Shown here: piece by piece, positions 3,753 through 59,737 of the stretch
Numbering within the stretch: the first letter of the stretch is position 1
How the letters are laid out: every line of letters begins with the position of its first letter
Assembly (NCBI GenBank): GCA_014191035.1
Contig: BJGX01000004.1
Span: 1 to 60,706 of the forward strand
Length of the DNA: 60,706 bases
DNA from: Candidatus Saccharimonadota bacterium
GTDB lineage: Bacteria; Patescibacteriota; Saccharimonadia; CAILAD01; BJGX01
Direction: 5' to 3'
The notes under the pieces: generated by a model
Seen by the model: only the letters and a program-made list of their open reading frames with translations
Database searches by the model: none
Told to the model about the DNA's origin: nothing
Translations under genes and position numbers: made by a program

Positions 3753-4157
3753 ATGACAGAAAGAGTTAAGGTCAATTGCGACGGAGGTTCTAGAGGTAAT
3801 CCTGGGCCTTCGGCGCTTGGTGTTGTAATAACTACAAAAGACGGCCAAATAATCGAGGAGTTCGGCGAGTATTTAGGTGAACAAACTAATAATTATGCGG
3901 AATATAGTGCAGTAATAAAGGCTTTAGAAAAACTACGAGACTTAAATATTTTAGATGCTGACTTTTATCTAGATAGTGAACTTATCGTTAAACAGCTAAA
4001 TGGAATCTATAAAGTAAAGCATGAAAACATTAAGCCGCTTAACGCCGCAGTTAATGAATTGCTATCTGGAATGAATGTGACTTTTACTCATGTCTACCGA
4101 AAAGACAACAAAGAGGCTGACGCGTTGGTGAATGAAGTGCTCGATTCCAAGAGATAG
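3753..4157 (+). CDS. rnhA: Ribonuclease HI family protein
   Basis: CDGGSRGNPGPSA, NNYAEYSAVIKAL and KEADALVN match the RNase H D-E-D-D core layout. An AAGGAG SD lies upstream. Confidence 0.8.
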   Translation: MTERVKVNCDGGSRGNPGPSALGVVITTKDGQIIEEFGEYLGEQTNNYAEYSAVIKALEKLRDLNILDADFYLDSELIVKQLNGIYKVKHENIKPLNAAVNELLSGMNVTFTHVYRKDNKEADALVNEVLDSKR

Positions 4158-4189
4158 ACAAATAAGCATAAATATATTATAATAACGTT

Positions 4190-4564
4190 GCTATGAGTTA
4201 ACGGATGGTCGCTCGATTATCGAGAGGAAAGTCCGAACAGCATAGAGTAACGGTAGTTGCTAACTGCAACCAGGAGTAATCCTAGGGAAAGTGCCACAGA
4301 GACTATACCGCCCTTCGGGGTAAGGGTGAAAAGAGTGGGGTAAGAGCCCACAGCTCGGACAGGTGATTGTCGGGGCGAGGTAAACCCTACCGGCTGCAAG
4401 ATTATGGGCCCTTCTGCAATGTGCGGAGAGATTTCTCGTCTTTTTATGGGTATATCGCGTCATGTGTTTTCACAGATTATCAGCTTGCTGGTAAAGATAG
4501 ATGGCCATCGTCTTTCGAATTTATTCGGGAGAGTACAAAATTCGGCTTATAGTTAAGTCATAGC
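4190..4564 (+). ncRNA. rnpB: RNase P RNA (bacterial type A-like)
   Basis: GAGGAAAGTCCGAAC (P4 5' strand), AGGGTGAAA, GTAAGAGC and ACAAAATTCGGCTTAT (P4 3' strand) are present. P1 pairs gctatgagttaac with gttaagtcatagc. Confidence 0.85.
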
Positions 4565-4631
4565 AAATTAGATAACATTCGCAATCGTTTTGAGGGCGAA
4601 TGTTATTTATTTAAGTGGTAAAATAATAGTT

Positions 4632-6053
4632 ATGAGAAAACGAAGTGAATTGCTAATTGCGGTTTTTCAGATACCGGTAGATTATTTAATGCTGGTGATT
4701 AGTTTCGTTTTGGCATACTTTTTAAGAGAAGGAAGTGGAAAGCCTTTCGCTGTTGATGTTGGGGGCTATACATATCTGAACTTTATGCTGATATTTTTGC
4801 CTATTTGGTTAGTTTTGTTCTTCTCGGTTGGGCTTTATAGGCTTCGATCCGATAGAACTAAGTGGCTAGAGCTAGGTAAAATAATCGCTGCTTGCTCTGC
4901 TGGAGTAATGGCTTTAATTGTTATAGATTTTCTATCTGTTAAACCGATATTTCCTGCAAAAATAATACCGATCTATGGATTTTTATTTTCCATCGTTTTA
5001 GTGAGTTTGGGCCGAATAATTATGGGGGTTGTTCAGCGGCTTTTAGCAAGATACGGCGTGGGAGTTTATAGAGTTCTTTTCATAGGCCAAGGCCCTACAG
5101 CAGATCAGCTTAAACGAACTCTAAGAAAATTAAAAAGACGCTATAAAATCGTTTCTACAATATCTAGTATTGAATCGGTTTCCTTCCAGAAGCTAGAAAA
5201 TTTGATTAGGCGAGAGCATATAGATACGGTTCTTGTAGCAAATGTTAGCTCTGATGAGCAAAAGCTAACAGACATACTGTCATTTTGCCAAAATAATCAT
5301 GTCGGATACCAATATGTTCCAACTATGTCAGGTTTATATACTTCAAAAATATTATCTACTCAGATAGGCTCAGTGCCTGTGTTGGAAATGAAGCCAACAC
5401 CCATAGAGGGCTGGGGAAGAGTAGTAAAAAGATTATTCGATGTAATAGTTACAACTATAATTGCTTTAGTTACATTGCCAATTCAGATTGTAATTTATTT
5501 ACTTATAAAGATAACTGAACCTGGCCCAGTTATATACCCTCACGAGTGTTACGGCAGAAAAGGTAAAAAAATAAATGTCTATAAATTTAGAACAATGAAA
5601 TCTGAATATAGCTTAGGACCAAAATTTGGGGGCCAAACAATTGAAGATGTACTAAAAAAGCTTCCAAAGGATAAAGCAGAAGAGTTTAAGAAGAATGCGA
5701 AAATTAAAAATGACCCAAGAGTAAGCGGAATTGGTAAATTCTTAAGAAAAACCAGCTTAGATGAACTGCCTCAGTTATACAATGTCCTTAAGGGAGATTT
5801 AAGCTTGGTTGGCCCAAGGCCTCTTCCGGAATCTGAGTTGAAGCTACTTGGAGGTAATAAAAACTTGGCCAAAATAGTAACGATTAGGCCCGGAATTACG
5901 GGGCTGTGGCAGGTTTCTGGCAGAAACGATTTAGAATATTCGGAAAGAGTAAGGTTGAATATTTATTACATCGAAAACTGGTCTTTGTGGCTAGATATAA
6001 AAATATTATTTAAAACTTTTTGGCAGGCTGTTTTTGAACGCAATGGACTCTAA
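4632..6053 (+). CDS. Polyprenyl-phosphate glycosyl-1-phosphate transferase (bacterial sugar transferase, WbaP/EpsL-like)
   Basis: C-terminal SLDELPQLYNVLKGDLSLVGPRP motif after N-terminal TM helices. Start moved to ATG 4632, which has TAAAAT 7 nt upstream; the track ORF opens at 4590. Confidence 0.8.
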   Translation: MRKRSELLIAVFQIPVDYLMLVISFVLAYFLREGSGKPFAVDVGGYTYLNFMLIFLPIWLVLFFSVGLYRLRSDRTKWLELGKIIAACSAGVMALIVIDFLSVKPIFPAKIIPIYGFLFSIVLVSLGRIIMGVVQRLLARYGVGVYRVLFIGQGPTADQLKRTLRKLKRRYKIVSTISSIESVSFQKLENLIRREHIDTVLVANVSSDEQKLTDILSFCQNNHVGYQYVPTMSGLYTSKILSTQIGSVPVLEMKPTPIEGWGRVVKRLFDVIVTTIIALVTLPIQIVIYLLIKITEPGPVIYPHECYGRKGKKINVYKFRTMKSEYSLGPKFGGQTIEDVLKKLPKDKAEEFKKNAKIKNDPRVSGIGKFLRKTSLDELPQLYNVLKGDLSLVGPRPLPESELKLLGGNKNLAKIVTIRPGITGLWQVSGRNDLEYSERVRLNIYYIENWSLWLDIKILFKTFWQAVFERNGL

Positions 6054-7167
6054 AAAAGACTTTTCCAAGCTAAAGGTAGCTATTGTCCATGATTGGCTAG
6101 TTGGGTTGGGCGGTGCTGAAAGAGTTGTTGAGTCTATGCTCAAGCTTTTTCCCCAAGCGGATCTTTTTACTAGTGTTTATGATGATACGAAAATCAATAT
6201 TTTTAAGAATCGAAAAGTTATAACAACCTTTTTGCAAGACTGGCCATTATCTAAGAAAAAACATCAACTATTTGCCTCTTTGAGACCTTTGGCTTTTGAG
6301 AGTTTGGATTTGAGTGATTATGATCTGGTCTTATCTAGTTCCAGCGCCGAATCCAAAGGAGTAATAACACACACCGAGACTTTGCACGTGAGCTACATAC
6401 ATACCCCAGTGAGGTATTATTGGAGCTCTTATGATGAGTATCTCAAAAATCCTGGATTTGGGCTTTTAAACCCCTTTATAAGGCTTGTAATGCCTAGTAT
6501 GGTTAAAAAATTAAAGAGCTGGGATTATGCAGCCGCGCAAAGGCCGGATTTTATGATTGCCAACTCGAAAGAAGTATCATCTAGAATAAAGAAATACTAC
6601 AAGAGAAAGAGTGAAACTATAAACCCACCTGTAAATATAAAAAGGTTTTCGAAGATAAAAAGAAGTCACGAAGATTATTACCTTGTCGTTTCAAGATTTG
6701 TACCATACAAAAGGATAGATCTGGCGATAAAAGCCTGTAATGATCTTGAGAGAAAACTAATTGTCGCCGGAAGAGGCCCCGAAATAAAGAATCTTAAAAA
6801 GCTAGCTTCAAAAAACATTACATTTATTGAAGATCCTACAGATAAAAAAGTAGACTCCCTGTACGCAGGCGCCAAAGCATTTATTTTTTCTGCAGAGGAG
6901 GATTTTGGCATAACACCAGTTGAAGCGATGGCTGCAGGGGTTCCGGTGATATGTTTTGGCAGGGCGGGCGCAACTGAAACGGTAATAAATGGTAAAACAG
7001 GCTTGTATCATGACAAGCAGTCAGTACAAAGCCTGAAGGATGCAATCGAAAAATTCGAAACTATGCAGTTTGATACTAAATTAATAAAGTCTAGAGCGAG
7101 AGATTTTTCAGAAGATAAGTTTTTGAGCGCTTTAGGAGGGTTTATAAGTGAGAAGCTCAAGAAATAA
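6043..7167 (+). CDS. Glycosyltransferase family 4 (GT-B fold)
   Basis: EDFGITPVEAMAAGVPVI is an EX7E-type motif. Start is either ATG 6043 or TTG 6034. Confidence 0.8.
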   Translation: MDSKKDFSKLKVAIVHDWLVGLGGAERVVESMLKLFPQADLFTSVYDDTKINIFKNRKVITTFLQDWPLSKKKHQLFASLRPLAFESLDLSDYDLVLSSSSAESKGVITHTETLHVSYIHTPVRYYWSSYDEYLKNPGFGLLNPFIRLVMPSMVKKLKSWDYAAAQRPDFMIANSKEVSSRIKKYYKRKSETINPPVNIKRFSKIKRSHEDYYLVVSRFVPYKRIDLAIKACNDLERKLIVAGRGPEIKNLKKLASKNITFIEDPTDKKVDSLYAGAKAFIFSAEEDFGITPVEAMAAGVPVICFGRAGATETVINGKTGLYHDKQSVQSLKDAIEKFETMQFDTKLIKSRARDFSEDKFLSALGGFISEKLKK

Positions 7168-18454: not shown

Positions 18455-18847
18455 GGGGCTGTTTAGCTTCGACGTTGAATCTTGAAATATGATTGCGAGT
18501 CGGTTTGGAAATACACGTTAGCTGTTTCCATCTTTAACAAATGCAAAATCATTTGTAGAGCGTTTGGTTAATGCCGTAAAGGCACCAGCCTACGCACCAG
18601 CTTTTGCTTAATTTGCACTGGCCATCGAGCCTTCAATATCTGATAGAAGGAATTCGGTGTAATTTATCAGATTGCAGTAGAACTTCTTGCTAGGTTCTAA
18701 TCAAGTCTTTTATAGCGAGCAAGTTTAGGGCTTATTGCGCTAGTCTATAGAGCACTAAATTTGTAAAACTTATAAGATTAGCTACGCTCGTAGAAGTCAT
18801 ATTGGAAAGTTTAGCGGACGTGGGTGCAATTCCCGCCAGCTCCACCA
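18455..18847 (+). ncRNA. ssrA: tmRNA (SsrA)
   Basis: 5' GGGGCTG pairs with 3' CAGCTCC-ACCA (G3:U70). T-arm-like GGACGTGGGTGCAATTCCCGCC. Tag ORF from GCA 18543 to TAA 18609-18611. A TATAAT lies at 18439-18444. Confidence 0.9.
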
Positions 18848-38825: not shown

Positions 38826-41507
38826 ATGAAAATTAGCGTTGATTTAATAAATTCATATCTGATAAATAAGCTTTCTACCGAAAAGATGGCTGAAGTAATT
38901 GAGCGAACAGAAGTAGAGGTTGAAGAAATTCTGTATGCGAATAAGCTAGATGAAAAAATAATTACGGCTAAAGTAGTTGAAGTTATTAAACATCCAAATG
39001 CAGACAAGCTTAATAAAGCCAAAGTTGATAATGGAATTGCATTGATAGATATTGTATGCGGCGCACCAAATATTCGCGAAGGTTTAGTTGTTGCTCTTGC
39101 TCAAGTCGGATCAGTATTGCCTGATGGCTTTGAGATTAGAGAGGCTAAAATACGAGGTGAAGTTTCTCACGGAATGCTATGTTCAGAAAAAGAGTTAGCT
39201 TGGGGTGAAGATCATGGTGGCATTGTTGAGCTCGACCCTAGCCTACCTATAGGCCAATCATTGTGCGACACAGCAAAAATGAGTGATATCATAGACATTA
39301 AGACACCTTCGAACCGCTGGGACTACTTATCTTATGTCGGGCTAAGTAGGGAAATAGCTGCTTGCGATGATCAGAATTCACTAATTGAACCAGAAACTCA
39401 CGAAATAACATATAAAAACAGGGAAGTCGCAAAAGTCAATAAAAATGAAGGTTGTGAATCTTTTTATACTGTGAAAGCCCGTGTGAAAGCTGATCAAATA
39501 AGCCCTCGTTGGCTTGTGGATAACTTACAGGCATCGGGTGTTCGCACAATAAATCCTGTTGTAGATATTACTAATTTTGTAATGCTCGAATATGGGCAGC
39601 CCTCTCATGCTTACGATATTAATAAACTAAACGGCCCTATCGGTGTTAGGCTGGCTAAAAATAACGAACAGCTCACCACTCTGGATGGTAAGCAGCTTAA
39701 ATTAACTGATTCAGATTTGGTAATTGTGGATAACTCTGGGGCTGTAGCGCTTGCAGGTGTTATGGGAGGCACACGTACACAGACAGACGAAGAAACTACA
39801 GAGGTTCTGATTGAAATAGCTAATTTTGACAAAACAATAGTTCGGCGCTCTGCGCTTAGGCATGGCATTAGAACCGAAGCGTCTGCACGTTTTGAAAAAG
39901 GGCTTCCATCCACTCTCCCCTCTCTGGCTGCCAAAAGAATTATAAAATTACTAATAGAGATCTGTGATGCTGAAATAATAGATGCAAATGAACAATTGTA
40001 CTCCCCTTCCCCTATCCGCAATTTAGGAATGAGACTGAGAAAGGCTGACAAATTTATTGGCTACAGGCTGGATGAAAAAGAGGTGATGACCGCGCTTACG
40101 AAGCGTGGCTTTCAGCCAACCCATTTTTCGCTCACCAAAGAGACAAAAGCTCACATTGGAAAGCCATATATGTATGGGGCGCAAATAGACACTGAAAATC
40201 TTGAAAAGTTTGATTGCTCATTATTAACTAGCTATGTATATTCAAAGGCCGGATTGGATATTGGCAGAACTGCTCAGATGCAATTCGAAAAAGGAATGGA
40301 AGTTCCGGAAGCAGGATTAAAGCCAGGAGATCTTTTATTCCTTAAAGGTGATGAAAAACAAGCAGGCAAAAAAATAGGGCATGTTGGCATGTACCTCGGG
40401 CGCAGTGGCATATTGCAAGCTAGCTCCACTGAAAAAAAAGTTGTTATTAGCCCCGTCACTAAATTTACTAAAGCCAAAAACTATGCTGGAGCCAGAAGGT
40501 ATATAGAGAACTTTAATCATATTATTAGTGTCACTGTTCCGTGGTGGAGAGCAGATGTTGTTGGCGAGGCAGATCTATTAGAAGAGATTGCGAAGACTCA
40601 AGGCTATAATAACATGCCCGAAACATTGCCTGATTTTGGGCCAACACCAACTTTAAATCATCAACTACTACCCTCTTTAATGATCTTAAGGGAAAAGCTA
40701 GTTGCACTAGGCCTAATTGAGGTAATGACATATGCTTTTGTTTCTAAAAAGGACATCGAAAATTTAGGTATAAAAGATTCGGAAATACTAAAAATAGAAA
40801 ATCCACTGAGTTCAGAGCAAGATTATTTAAGGACTAGCTTACTACCAAGTCATTTAAGGGCAGCTTATAACAATCAAAAATCAAACTACAACTCAATGTT
40901 TGAAATAAGTAGAGTATCTAAAAAACAGGCTGATGGAGCTGAAGAAAAATGGGCTTTAGGAATTACGGTTTGGGGGGACGATAGCCTACTTAGACTTAAG
41001 GGCTTGATTGACAGTATCTTTGGTTGGCACAAAATAGATCCTAATATTGAGCGAACTAAAGATAGTTCTTTATATATAGATCAAAGATCGGCAAACATAA
41101 AAAACTATGGAGACTTTGGTCAGCTCAAGCCAGCACTGCTAAAGAGTTTTGGACTAAGAAATGAGCTTTCATTTGCCGAGCTAGATATTGAAAAAATTAT
41201 TAATAGTGATTTTACAATTAAAGCCAAACCGCTACTCCCTTACCAGATAATTTATAAAGATATCACCATTGAGTTACCCATGACCACTTTATATACTGAA
41301 TTAAAAATAAAACTTAATGGAATAACGCATAGCGTTGATTTTGTAGATGAATTTTCTAATGACGAGTTAATAAATAGTTCTAGAAAACGCCTAACTATAA
41401 AGGTAGGTTTTGACTTGGGTCCTAATCCAAAATCCGATGAAATCTCAAAGCATCTGCAAGCCTGCTCCAAAAAACTTGAGACATTAGAAAAAGCTAAAGT
41501 ATTATAG
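38826..41507 (+). CDS. pheT: Phenylalanine--tRNA ligase beta subunit carrying an inserted NlpC/P60-like domain
   Basis: Contains the tRNA-binding OB domain (KHPNADKLNKAKVD), B3/4, B5, the core domain and a C-terminal FDX-ACB domain. About 129 extra residues (aa 437-565) carry GKPYMYG...FDCS...GDLLF...GHVGMY. Confidence 0.9.
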   Translation: MKISVDLINSYLINKLSTEKMAEVIERTEVEVEEILYANKLDEKIITAKVVEVIKHPNADKLNKAKVDNGIALIDIVCGAPNIREGLVVALAQVGSVLPDGFEIREAKIRGEVSHGMLCSEKELAWGEDHGGIVELDPSLPIGQSLCDTAKMSDIIDIKTPSNRWDYLSYVGLSREIAACDDQNSLIEPETHEITYKNREVAKVNKNEGCESFYTVKARVKADQISPRWLVDNLQASGVRTINPVVDITNFVMLEYGQPSHAYDINKLNGPIGVRLAKNNEQLTTLDGKQLKLTDSDLVIVDNSGAVALAGVMGGTRTQTDEETTEVLIEIANFDKTIVRRSALRHGIRTEASARFEKGLPSTLPSLAAKRIIKLLIEICDAEIIDANEQLYSPSPIRNLGMRLRKADKFIGYRLDEKEVMTALTKRGFQPTHFSLTKETKAHIGKPYMYGAQIDTENLEKFDCSLLTSYVYSKAGLDIGRTAQMQFEKGMEVPEAGLKPGDLLFLKGDEKQAGKKIGHVGMYLGRSGILQASSTEKKVVISPVTKFTKAKNYAGARRYIENFNHIISVTVPWWRADVVGEADLLEEIAKTQGYNNMPETLPDFGPTPTLNHQLLPSLMILREKLVALGLIEVMTYAFVSKKDIENLGIKDSEILKIENPLSSEQDYLRTSLLPSHLRAAYNNQKSNYNSMFEISRVSKKQADGAEEKWALGITVWGDDSLLRLKGLIDSIFGWHKIDPNIERTKDSSLYIDQRSANIKNYGDFGQLKPALLKSFGLRNELSFAELDIEKIINSDFTIKAKPLLPYQIIYKDITIELPMTTLYTELKIKLNGITHSVDFVDEFSNDELINSSRKRLTIKVGFDLGPNPKSDEISKHLQACSKKLETLEKAKVL

Positions 41508-55786: not shown

Positions 55787-57305
<1,519 letters not shown>

Positions 57306-57491: not shown

Positions 57492-57752
57492 TTATTTTTC
57501 GGTACTTAATCCGCCGAACAAATTAGAGAACGCCCCACCAAGTGGTCCGCTTAAAAATCCTAGTGCACCACTTAAAATTAGTAGTCCACCTAATATCATT
57601 ATTATTCCTATGAGCTTTATAAAGCCCCTGCTAGTGCCCGGGAATTTTCTTTCTATAAAGCTAAGATTTCCGGTGAAGTTATATATTTTTTCACCAAAGA
57701 CAACAATTAGTACCCCAACAATAATTATGATTAGTCCCCAGACAATATTCAT
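57492..57752 (-). CDS. Small (86 aa) glycine-rich membrane protein (hypothetical), antisense to the rRNA/tRNA direction
   Basis: Two or three TM helices. TAAAAT (57764-57759) lies 6 nt upstream of the ATG. A terminator sits at the stop. Confidence 0.5.
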   Translation of the reverse strand: MNIVWGLIIIIVGVLIVVFGEKIYNFTGNLSFIERKFPGTSRGFIKLIGIIMILGGLLILSGALGFLSGPLGGAFSNLFGGLSTEK

Positions 57753-57793: not shown

Positions 57794-57822
57794 TTGAAAT
57801 TTAAGCGTTTTCAGGTTACAAT
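57794..57822 (+). promoter_or_regulatory. Sigma-70-like promoter for the tRNA-Ile/tRNA-Ala unit
   Basis: TTGAAA (57794-57799), 17-nt spacer, TACAAT (57817-57822). Confidence 0.5.
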
Positions 57823-57844: not shown

Positions 57845-57921
57845 GGGACCGTAGCTCAGCTGGTTAGAGCGCGTCACTGATAATGACGAGGTCGGAGGTT
57901 CGAGTCCTCCCGGTCCCACCA
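57845..57921 (+). tRNA. tRNA-Ile (anticodon GAT), CCA encoded
   Basis: Cloverleaf: GGGACCG/CGGTCCC acceptor, anticodon loop CTGATAA, T-arm GGAGG-TTCGAGT-CCTCC. Confidence 0.95.
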
Positions 57922-57924
57922 TGA

Positions 57925-57961
57925 GGGGAGCGCGCCGGCTTCGGTCGGTAGCTCTCCACCA
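57925..57961 (+). ncRNA. tRNA-Ala-like acceptor minihelix (37 nt) ending in ACCA
   Basis: GGGGAGC pairs with GCTCTCC (G3:U70 wobble). Then a 3x2 internal loop, a CCGGC-UUCG-GUCGG stem-loop, and 3' ACCA. Confidence 0.5.
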
Positions 57962-57971
57962 TAAATATTTT

Positions 57972-58048
57972 GGGGCATTAGCTCAGTTGGCTAGAGCACC
58001 TGCTTTGCAAGCAGGGGGTCCGGGGTTCGAGTCCCCGATGCTCCACCA
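57972..58048 (+). tRNA. tRNA-Ala (anticodon TGC), CCA encoded
   Basis: Cloverleaf: GGGGCAT/ATGCTCC acceptor with G3:U70, anticodon loop TTTGCAA, T-arm CGGGG-TTCGAGT-CCCCG. Confidence 0.95.
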
Positions 58049-58055
58049 TTCAAAC

Positions 58056-58079
58056 AATCCGCTATTTGGCGGATTTTTT
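58056..58079 (+). terminator. Intrinsic terminator immediately after tRNA-Ala
   Basis: aatccgc-tatttg-gcggatt followed by ttttt. The stem can extend to ttcaaa/tttgaa. Confidence 0.65.
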
Positions 58080-58193
58080 GAATGGACAGTATTGCTCGAG
58101 AACCCAACGCCCGAAAGGGTGGGGTTCGGTGGAATTGAGCCACGCACAGAAGCTTGCTTCGAGCATGGCGAAATGAAAAAGGGCTTGCCCACT

Positions 58194-58212
58194 GTCCCCG
58201 ATGCTCCACCAT
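58194..58212 (+). repeat. Exact 19-nt direct repeat of the tRNA-Ala 3' end (other copy at 58031-58049)
   Basis: gtccccgatgctccaccat occurs at both positions. Confidence 0.9.
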
Positions 58213-58214
58213 AG

Positions 58215-58243
58215 AAAAAACCCACCTTCAGGTGGGCTTTTTC
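58215..58243 (+). terminator. Intrinsic terminator
   Basis: aaaaaa-cccacc-ttca-ggtggg-cttttt. Confidence 0.6.
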
Positions 58244-59383: not shown

Positions 59384-59737
59384 AGAGCTTAAGGAAAACG
59401 CCTGATTACATTCGGGCCTTTTCTTTTACTCTGGATAATGTGGTAGGGGCAGGTCGGGCTAAGCGTTGCACTCATTACAAGCACGCATTCAAGATCTCTT
59501 GGCAGTTCAGGGAAGGCTGCTAGGTACACCCCTTTGGCTTGGTCGGGTGTTCGTGCTTGGGCAAAGATTTTGCCGCACGGGCCCAGCAGTTCGAACACTC
59601 TCTTCGGTGGCTTTTTGCTTTTCCCTTCTTGGGCTGTGGCTTGCAGTGGGCTTGCTTGGCTTATAGTGCGTTTCAATGAGCCTCCAAACTCAAGAAACAG
59701 GCCTACAAACTCACTTATCCTTTCTGTAGGTGCGAAT
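59384..59737 (-). ncRNA. Candidate structured non-coding RNA (about 375 nt including the terminator), class unknown
   Basis: Visibly more G+C-rich than its flanks. A minus-strand TTGACT-16 nt-TAAAAT (59771-59744) lies upstream and a strong terminator downstream. Several nested helices. The overlapping 133-aa ORF has atypical composition. Confidence 0.35.

Follow-up and report, generated by a model that had tools for sequence, protein, structure and literature searches.

The alanine minihelix has, since 1989, been the textbook laboratory proof of acceptor-stem-only reading, and it underpins the "operational RNA code" view of tRNA origin. Alanyl-tRNA synthetase (AlaRS) reads tRNA-Ala nearly entirely through the wobble pair G3.U70, aided by A73 and G2:C71. 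Synthetic minihelix-Ala is also accepted by RNase P, the CCA-adding enzyme and elongation factor Tu (EF-Tu), and the last two of these read helix length. The charging of synthetic alanine minihelices by AlaRS is credited to Francklyn and Schimmel (1989) in PMC9976931 (reference 110). Here we describe a 37-nt hairpin at positions 57925-57961 of contig BJGX01000004.1 from a Candidatus Saccharimonadota bacterium (GenBank assembly GCA_014191035.1, forward strand, 60,706 nucleotides; the whole stretch is called the window). The hairpin, referred to as the minihelix, is very probably a real and apparently undescribed, anticodon-less tRNA-like RNA gene of Saccharibacteria (TM7). Like the synthetic minihelix-Ala and microhelix-Ala it is a hairpin of about 35 nt with G1:C72, G2:C71, G3.U70, A73, a free CCA and about the length of an acceptor/T-arm stack. 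Unlike the laboratory construct, which has a 7-nt T loop and 12 pairs, it is genomic and conserved, comprises 13-14 stacked layers, is closed by a tetraloop or a loop of 5-6 nt, and usually carries a mismatch or bulge at layer 7-8.

A second close relative is the tRNA-like domain of tmRNA, a non-tRNA substrate that AlaRS recognizes via G3.U70 and A73-CCA and that is matured by RNase P. The initial annotation of the window, made from its letters alone, had stated that the window's tmRNA and tRNA-Ala share the alanine set with the hairpin; this holds, with GGGGCUG...CAGCUCCACCA in the tmRNA and GGGGCAU/AUGCUCC in the tRNA-Ala acceptor stem, of which only the first four pairs are common to the minihelix. 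The T-arm, the SmpB-binding D-loop analogue, the pseudoknots and the tag reading frame of a tmRNA are all missing from the minihelix. An assignment as a one- or two-piece tmRNA was rejected: the Rfam family tmRNA_permuted reaches 21.4 bits (threshold 47) over 57894-57943 only, and the window has a standard tmRNA as well as SmpB. The tag peptide of this tmRNA, APAYAPAFA, is rich in proline and ends on FA. Among smaller non-decoding tRNA-like RNAs, mascRNA and menRNA are likewise released by RNase P from longer precursors, as would be the minihelix; they differ in being eukaryotic and cloverleaf-shaped, in receiving their CCA after transcription and in not being known to be aminoacylated. Rfam matches to mascRNA near the minihelix fall on both neighboring tRNAs and none on the hairpin. 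Armless mitochondrial tRNAs (about 42-50 nt) and viral tRNA-like structures are similarly reduced or unorthodox and are aminoacylated, as is presumed for the minihelix. The former have an anticodon arm and decode and the latter are pseudoknots at viral 3' ends, unlike a free-standing bacterial gene that lacks an anticodon arm.

The element starts 3 nt (TGA) past the CCA of tRNA-Ile and ends 10 nt ahead of tRNA-Ala, as first proposed and as ARAGORN and Rfam place the two tRNAs. Its sequence, GGGGAGCGCGCCGGCTTCGGTCGGTAGCTCTCCACCA, is folded by RNAfold into (((((((..((((((....)))))).))))))).... with -23.1 kcal/mol and 84% of the ensemble (z = -4.0 relative to 200 dinucleotide shuffles, one of which was equally stable). 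The outer stem had been described as seven pairs with G3:U70, followed by A73 and CCA, and is borne out base by base in sequence and fold: G1:C72, G2:C71, G3.U70 (G57927 with U57955), G4:C69, A5:U68, G6:C67 and C7:G66. For the inner stem, the UUCG cap stands; the proposed 5 bp and the "7+5" total do not. The fold gives 6 inner pairs because an additional G.U joins, and the complete helix has 13 pairs and a 2x1 internal loop, with the tetraloop closed as C(UUCG)G. The observation at these positions is confirmed, and its interpretation as an alanine minihelix gene is supported by the comparative data given below. A covariance model built only from relatives matches the minihelix with 28.8 bits (E = 1.7e-7), followed in the window by the 3' half of tRNA-Ala (14.7 bits). 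Shuffled versions of the window lead one to expect 0.03 occurrences of the motif GGGG-N18-36-CTCCACCA; outside tRNA-Ala, the window itself has one.

Existing gene finders do not call the element. As a canonical tRNA it was rejected, ARAGORN and Rfam calling only both neighbors and 37 nt forming one hairpin and no cloverleaf; an assignment as a tRNA pseudogene was likewise rejected. In Rfam release 15 no family reaches its gathering threshold over the minihelix, and at E values up to 10 there are only sub-threshold partial overlaps (tmRNA_permuted, YrlA, rsmX). Being invisible to tRNA finders and Rfam, the minihelix lacks an annotation in those Saccharibacteria genomes where it occurs. Our literature search, whose coverage left out most subscription journals and which included a 2023 review on tRNA identity, returned no described natural minihelix gene. 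Within the libraries searchable, the earlier statement that no natural minihelix-Ala gene is described thus agrees with both Rfam and the papers, and the minihelix adds an apparently undescribed variant to the tRNA-like RNAs.

The element is widespread in Saccharibacteria. A scan for a tRNA-Ile end and a tRNA-Ala start 31-61 nt apart gave one true ortholog, L004, in a Candidatus Saccharimonadia metagenome-assembled genome (MAG). L004 and the window agree base for base in the promoter-like site, the two tRNAs, the outer stem and ACCA; the spacers, including those flanking the promoter-like site, differ, and the inner stem shows a compensatory change (C:G to U:A) next to a loop changed from UUCG to UUUG. 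A broader pattern, consisting of a tRNA T-arm with CCA, 0-12 nt and GGGG-N18-36-CTCCACCA, returned at least 119 loci. Saccharibacteria loci with the element come from at least about 100 GTDB species, including complete genomes of cultivated Nanosynbacter strains, and every listed one carries a 34-38-nt hairpin of the window's design; the remaining loci are chance matches in other phyla without this fold. The 101 listed loci reduce to 67 unique sequences (34 nt, 4; 35 nt, 6; 36 nt, 38; 37 nt, 17; 38 nt, 2), and all sources together yield at least 81 unique sequences of 34-38 nt. The window's own stem with a free interior has no match in GTDB representatives. The listed matches of a GGGGAGC-N12-30-GCTCTCCACCA scan are chance occurrences in high-GC genomes, and the most hairpin-like of them (L043, L077, L096) have no nearby tRNA gene and lie in apparently coding sequence. 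For the commonest minihelix class, 9 chance matches were found in viral contigs, none of them a proper hairpin or adjacent to a tRNA.

Among the matches listed, ARAGORN always places the hairpin within a tRNA-Ala/tRNA-Ile cluster. The most frequent order is tRNA-Ala, minihelix, tRNA-Ile (44 loci), followed by tRNA-Ile and minihelix at the end of the unit (31 loci), tRNA-Ala and minihelix with nothing within 80 nt (12 loci), tRNA-Ala, minihelix, tRNA-Val (7 loci), and the order of the window, tRNA-Ile, minihelix, tRNA-Ala (7 loci). Association with tRNA-Ala, as expected initially, is therefore found at the level of the cluster; a fixed place just upstream of tRNA-Ala is not, the element mostly lying 3' of it. 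The cluster is housed in the 16S-23S spacer in several genomes, and in cultivated Nanosynbacter strains (TM7x relatives, TM7-008, oral taxon 488 and HOT-352) the element sits inside the single rRNA operon, flanked by tRNA-Ala and tRNA-Ile. In other Saccharibacteria, too, the tRNAs are placed between 16S and 23S, in some cases at a distance of about 2.5 kb from 23S (L173). On one Saccharimonadia contig (L208, 1628-1715) a match to the Rfam family group II intron D1-D4 (41.5 bits, threshold 35) lies between 16S and the tRNA cluster. Recurrent synteny comprises gyrB-gyrA-DUF212-16S on the upstream side and, downstream, various housekeeping genes. The minihelix is absent from the 6-8 kb examined in a Saccharibacteria MAG (L286) and in a Patescibacteria MAG (L322).

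The comparison identifies a structured RNA. Across a first set of 38 unique 36-nt sequences from the matches listed, both sides change in 9 of 14 pairs, and the covariation score of 0.368 exceeds that of shuffled alignments (mean 0.154, none of 500 reaching 0.368) and of slid pairing partners (at most 0.08). A covariance model of the 36-nt class aligned 76 matches of all length classes, 71 of them distinct; in the latter, 96.8% of cells are paired and the score is 0.396 against 0.153. One of the 76 is a spurious antisense partial match and the source of the lone unpaired 3:70 cell. Stem positions 5-7 covary, as do all inner pairs but one. The loop varies (UUCG, GAAA, UUAC and CCCCCC, among others), and so do pairs 5-14 and the mismatches or the bulge found at layer 7-8. 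A helix of 13-14 layers is constant, together with its first four pairs and the tail, and G3.U70 is present in 70 of 70 aligned true members. The broad scan is uninformative on the identity elements because its pattern forced GGGG, CTCC and ACCA. Most minihelices share a loop-proximal motif GGC-tetraloop-GUC (57937-57939 with 57944-57946 in the window; columns 12-14 and 19-21 of alignment A1), which is absent from the classes with CCCCCC and 5-nt loops. Since pairs 5-7 differ from those of the tRNA-Ala in the same genome, the minihelix is not a recent tRNA-Ala copy.

These data bear on the most sceptical reading, namely that the hairpin is a decayed tRNA-Ala fragment, a chance GC-rich hairpin or an intrinsic terminator and has no function. 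Decayed tRNA-Ala 3' fragments do occur nearby (58195-58212 in the window, 2400-2438 in L392), and a T run follows ACCA in one class of relatives. Compensatory changes nonetheless keep at least 81 unique sequences paired across a class-level clade, the motif count leaves chance little room at 0.03 per window, and the chance matches in other genomes and in viral contigs neither fold in this way nor adjoin tRNAs. An intrinsic terminator was rejected: no U run directly follows the stem, ACCAUAAAUAUUUU and then tRNA-Ala coming after it, and the terminator scan makes no call there. An artefact of a single sequence is excluded by the diversity of the family and by at least about 100 independent assemblies. 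On comparative grounds the non-functional reading is close to refuted. The L392 fragment, GGGGTCGCCAAAGGTGACCGAGTCCCTGTGTCTCCACCA, is a decayed tRNA-Ala-like sequence downstream of the real tRNA-Ala and resembles the duplicated 3' end in the window.

Conservation of the alanine identity set was assessed in a sample retrieved without reference to the hairpin. It consists of 120 metagenome loci fetched by a 25-nt tRNA-Ile core alone, which is present in 96 of the 101 listed broad-scan loci. A scan for a tRNA followed by GGGCGNTTAGCTCAG within 2-62 nt was rejected as a source of such a sample, its anchor fitting tRNA genes of many phyla. Most of the 120 loci apparently belong to other lineages of the candidate phyla radiation (CPR) and lack the minihelix; 20 carry it, giving 19 unique sequences, or 20 with L004 added. 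Fifteen of the 20 loci were detected by a structure-only hairpin finder, three by reading the spacers and two by the covariance model. G1:C72, G2:C71, G3.U70 and ACCA are present in all 20 unique sequences and G4:C69 in 19, with G.U in the other one; changes in pairs 5-7 are compensated. When the same loci were scanned loosely for hairpins of any kind that end in NCCA, 183 came up, for the most part weak and due to chance, and inspection revealed no minihelix-like one that lies next to a tRNA and has a different 3:70 pair. The comparative check proposed at the outset, a search for conserved hairpins with G3:U70, A73 and CCA by tRNA-Ala, thus finds them across Saccharibacteria with compensatory changes and the identity set in 20 of 20. 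In eight of the loci (L428, L434, L435, L453, L454, L467, L471, L486), apparently from other CPR lineages, a second tRNA-Ile 3' half (anticodon loop onward) lies shortly past or overlapping the called gene, which suggests an intron-containing tRNA-Ile or an att-type duplication.

The sequence ahead of the hairpin resembles a tRNA leader. Bacterial RNase P prefers U at position -1, G1:C72 and a 3' RCCA. The three bases before G1 of the minihelix are mostly TAT or CAT (also CGA, TAC and TGA). Base -1 is U in 17 of 20 unbiased contexts (85%) and in 57 of 72 pattern-selected ones (79%), and never G; for tRNA genes of the same loci the values are 86 of 151 (57%) for U and 5 of 151 (3%) for G. In the window it is A. 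The minihelix has G1:C72, the 3' RCCA and a helix of about the length of an acceptor/T stack, and with the prevalent U at -1 it bears the marks of an RNase P substrate. RNase P cleavage 5' of G1 is thus predicted, and by established substrate rules the window's own type A RNase P RNA would act on it in trans.

The same features would be expected of a cis-acting processing signal, in which the hairpin and RCCA recruit RNase P to separate the adjoining tRNAs or rRNA precursors, leaving the upstream tRNA a 3-nt trailer, and the RNA is then degraded without ever being charged. The hairpin does sit in a tRNA/rRNA polycistron. Among the matches listed, 101 of about 104 hairpins of Saccharibacteria type begin no more than 12 nt, and mostly 3 nt, past a tRNA-Ala or tRNA-Ile CCA (the pattern allowed 0-12 nt); the element has the type A substrate features and a helix of the length of the acceptor/T-arm stack that RNase P measures. 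The tRNA-like punctuation of rRNA and organellar transcripts is a known parallel, sharing the position in a polycistron and an acceptor helix recognizable to RNase P. Such punctuation needs no synthetase identity, whereas the alanine set is the most conserved part of the minihelix. RNase P is not known to require G2:C71, G3.U70 or G4:C69, three pairs that change rarely or never in this RNA, in contrast to the variable pairs 5-7. A wobble pair needed only for pairing drifts in this RNA, since the second, loop-proximal G.U (two pairs from the loop) is G.U in 48 of 65 sequences and G:C in 17 (26%), and G3.U70 does not drift. Moreover, the minihelix lies 28 to more than 70 nt past the upstream tRNA in L370, L399, L466 and L472 of the unbiased set, where the U preference at -1 persists, and loci without it simply have a short inter-tRNA spacer (14 nt in L409, for example). 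A pure processing role is therefore unlikely. AlaRS is the more plausible reader because RNase P alone leaves the invariant G2:C71, G3.U70 and G4:C69 unexplained; the pattern of fixed and variable positions points to a reader that recognizes the acceptor end and measures the helix.

Mimicry of the tRNA-Ala acceptor end could also serve a decoy or regulator that is not necessarily charged and transfers no alanine. Such an RNA could titrate or report AlaRS, or could absorb an acceptor-end toxin or a tRNA-Ala-specific factor. An invariant acceptor end with all else variable would suit this role, and a location in rRNA/tRNA operons ties output to rRNA and tRNA synthesis. Toxins that inspect acceptor stems exist, toxSAS FaRel2 being one (bioRxiv 10.1101/2024.07.05.602228), which is a lead only. 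There is, however, no consistently linked partner gene. A recurrent neighbor, a 147-aa GNAT acetyltransferase encoded about 880 nt ahead of the minihelix (L139, 3055-3499, and 15 other loci), is cut off by a terminator of its own and by a membrane gene on the opposite strand; it was rejected as a functional partner and reflects synteny only. In the clade carrying it, tRNA-Ile and the minihelix lie downstream, and several MAGs come from animal guts. The uncharged state in addition needs an extra assumption, because any RNA that combines a free CCA with the complete identity set for AlaRS would become charged if nothing prevented it. We regard a decoy as rather improbable.

The reading we prefer is a tRNA-like gene whose product is matured in the manner of a tRNA and alanylated by AlaRS, to which we assign a probability of roughly 0.6. 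The minihelix would be co-transcribed with tRNA-Ile and tRNA-Ala, in many relatives within the 16S-23S spacer. An RNase P cut 5' of G1 would free it, and 3' exonucleases would trim it to the encoded CCA as for the adjoining tRNAs; where it is last in its unit, the 3' end may be formed by termination and then trimming. The predicted product is a stable helix of about 36 nt with 13-14 stacked layers that has only the acceptor end of tRNA-Ala, and AlaRS should load it with alanine through G3.U70, A73 and G2:C71. The charged minihelix would be unable to decode because it has neither an anticodon nor a T-loop elbow, and its role would therefore need only an alanylated or AlaRS-binding acceptor end.

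Any downstream use is speculative. As a first guess, the alanylated minihelix might be a non-ribosomal alanine donor, e.g. to Fem-type cell-wall transferases. Known parallels are extra carriers among the tRNA genes: in staphylococci, non-proteogenic tRNA-Gly species are reserved for building the cell wall (PMC7826273) as donors for FmhB, FemA and FemB, and FemX of Weissella uses Ala-tRNA-Ala. FemX also accepts alanylated RNA helices, with G2-C71 as the main determinant (PMC2655667), and this pair is invariant in the minihelices as well. The staphylococcal and Weissella carriers are full cloverleafs with anticodons, unlike the minihelix, whose partnership with Fem proteins is hypothetical. FemAB-family transferases are encoded in some Saccharibacteria. 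A local search of the fetched loci with FemX (query matching PDB 1NE9 with 761 bits over all 335 residues) found in L211 two tandem FemAB-family genes on the minus strand (3778-4812 and 4809-5885), the upstream one with 245 bits to Pfam FemAB. The pair ends 72 nt from tRNA-Ala (5957-6033), which precedes the minihelix (6041-6076), and is divergent from both. A database search with the L211 protein gave about 36 clusters with 51-66% identity on contigs of up to 892 kb, one with a name that begins "Candidatus Micr". Six loci, fetched for three of these proteins, place the gene in the region from rpsL-rpsG to fusA; four have a tandem pair with rpsG and fusA on either side, and two have a single inverted copy. 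Examples are the pairs inserted into the str operon, close to tuf and flanked by rpsG (S7) and fusA (EF-G), at L499 7001-9084 and L501 7001-9075, and the single inverted copy at L503 7001-8053. The literature search found no papers naming both Saccharibacteria and FemAB. We tentatively place alanine donation first among the uses proposed; an anticodon-less carrier feeding a non-ribosomal acceptor (the Fem cross-bridge, a lipid or a protein N-terminus), separate from the tRNA-Ala pool of translation, is conceivable rather than probable.

Several points weigh against an alanylated carrier. The genomic context, with the commonest site 3 nt past a tRNA in an rRNA/tRNA polycistron, fits processing as well. 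The distribution is patchy: for the three commonest tRNA-Ile sequences of Saccharibacteria type, 10 of 11, 3 of 5 and 2 of 8 loci have the minihelix, so that 1, 2 and 6 loci with the same tRNA-Ile lack it, and other CPR lineages are without it; the element is therefore dispensable. The 67 unique sequences were pattern-selected for GGGG/CTCCACCA, identity conservation being read from the 20-sequence set only, and the last five of the 20 unbiased loci were partly recognized by the consensus. A charged minihelix might also occupy EF-Tu, as a cost. As to Fem, the link is weak: the adjacency in L211 is a single case that may be coincidence, no minihelix lies near FemAB in the six loci of the rpsG-fusA region, no FemAB match bears the name Nanosynbacter (in a search limited by a word filter), and the clade recovered with about 36 clusters looks narrower than the distribution of the minihelix.

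Features of the window are summarized in Table 1.

Table 1. Coordinates of the minihelix, its parts and other relevant features in the window.
Feature	Position	Strand	Basis and remarks
Putative minihelix-Ala, entire 37-nt element	57925..57961	+	sequence, fold, covariance model, motif count, orthologs
Acceptor-like stem, 5' strand, G1-C7	57925..57931	+	pairs with 57951-57957 in fold; G1-G4 invariant among family members
Acceptor-like stem, 3' strand, G66-C72, U70 at 57955	57951..57957	+	sequence, fold
Inner 6-bp stem, 57934-57939 with 57944-57949; UUCG tetraloop 57940-57943	57934..57949	+	fold
Unpaired tail A73-C74-C75-A76	57958..57961	+	sequence, fold; ACCA in 20/20 unbiased unique sequences
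Promoter-like site TTGAAA, 17 nt, TACAAT, for tRNA-Ile/minihelix/tRNA-Ala	57794..57822	+	consensus scan, 10/12 matches
tRNA-Ile (GAT), CCA encoded	57845..57921	+	ARAGORN; Rfam tRNA, 75.1 bits
3-nt spacer TGA, tRNA-Ile trailer and minihelix 5' leader	57922..57924	+	sequence; putative RNase P cut past 57924
10-nt spacer TAAATATTTT, minihelix 3' trailer and tRNA-Ala 5' leader	57962..57971	+	sequence; differs in L004
tRNA-Ala (TGC), CCA encoded	57972..58048	+	ARAGORN, Rfam
Intrinsic-terminator-like hairpin (58056-58075) and T run ending the unit	58056..58081	+	terminator scan
RNase P RNA, bacterial type A	4193..4565	+	Rfam RF00010, 206 bits
Standard tmRNA, 393 nt	18455-18847		ARAGORN, Rfam; first four acceptor pairs as in minihelix
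16S rRNA gene, upstream of the tRNAs	55788-57303		Rfam

An 86-aa membrane open reading frame (ORF) on the opposite strand (57492-57752) lies between 16S and the tRNAs, a layout also found in L004 and L139, and Rfam finds no 23S rRNA within the window. With the promoter-like site, which probably acts as the promoter of the unit, the terminator, the separating ORF and the lack of 23S, tRNA-Ile, minihelix and tRNA-Ala seem to form a transcription unit of their own. Relative to L004, about 190 nt are inserted in the window directly past tRNA-Ala (58049-58240). The insertion comprises the terminator hairpin, a stretch of about 110 nt, 18 nt that exactly repeat the tRNA-Ala 3' end (GTCCCCGATGCTCCACCA, 58195-58212) and another terminator (58221-58236), and it resembles the trace left by an element on integration into the tRNA-Ala 3' end. 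Pfam annotation of 40 window ORFs of at least 110 aa gave, among others, ArgRS, a TrpRS/TyrRS-type synthetase, PheRS, gyrase, glycosyltransferases and an L,D-transpeptidase; alaS and genes for Fem, MprF-type or L/F-transferase proteins are not among these 40. The PheRS beta subunit (38826-41507) contains an NlpC/P60 peptidase domain inserted at residues 445-558, next to tRNA_bind, B3_4, B5 and CLM domains. A GC-rich island at 59420-59700 (GC 0.5-0.58, compared with about 0.35 nearby) has only overlapping implausible ORFs and no Rfam match at E values up to 0.1; it may be a structured RNA of a new kind, or a remnant.

Conservation of the minihelix spans a whole class of bacteria with very small genomes, in which nothing of this RNA stays fixed but the length of the helix and the alanine identity set. 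If the proposed reading is true, a natural gene would shift the alanine minihelix from a model substrate to biology, and the RNA would join tmRNA, viral tRNA-like structures and non-proteogenic tRNAs as a new kind of tRNA-like RNA. With it, a synthetase would for the first time have a natural minihelix substrate encoded in a genome, a living counterpart of the proposed proto-tRNA, and the RNA would raise the question of what use a cell has for alanine on a carrier that does not decode.

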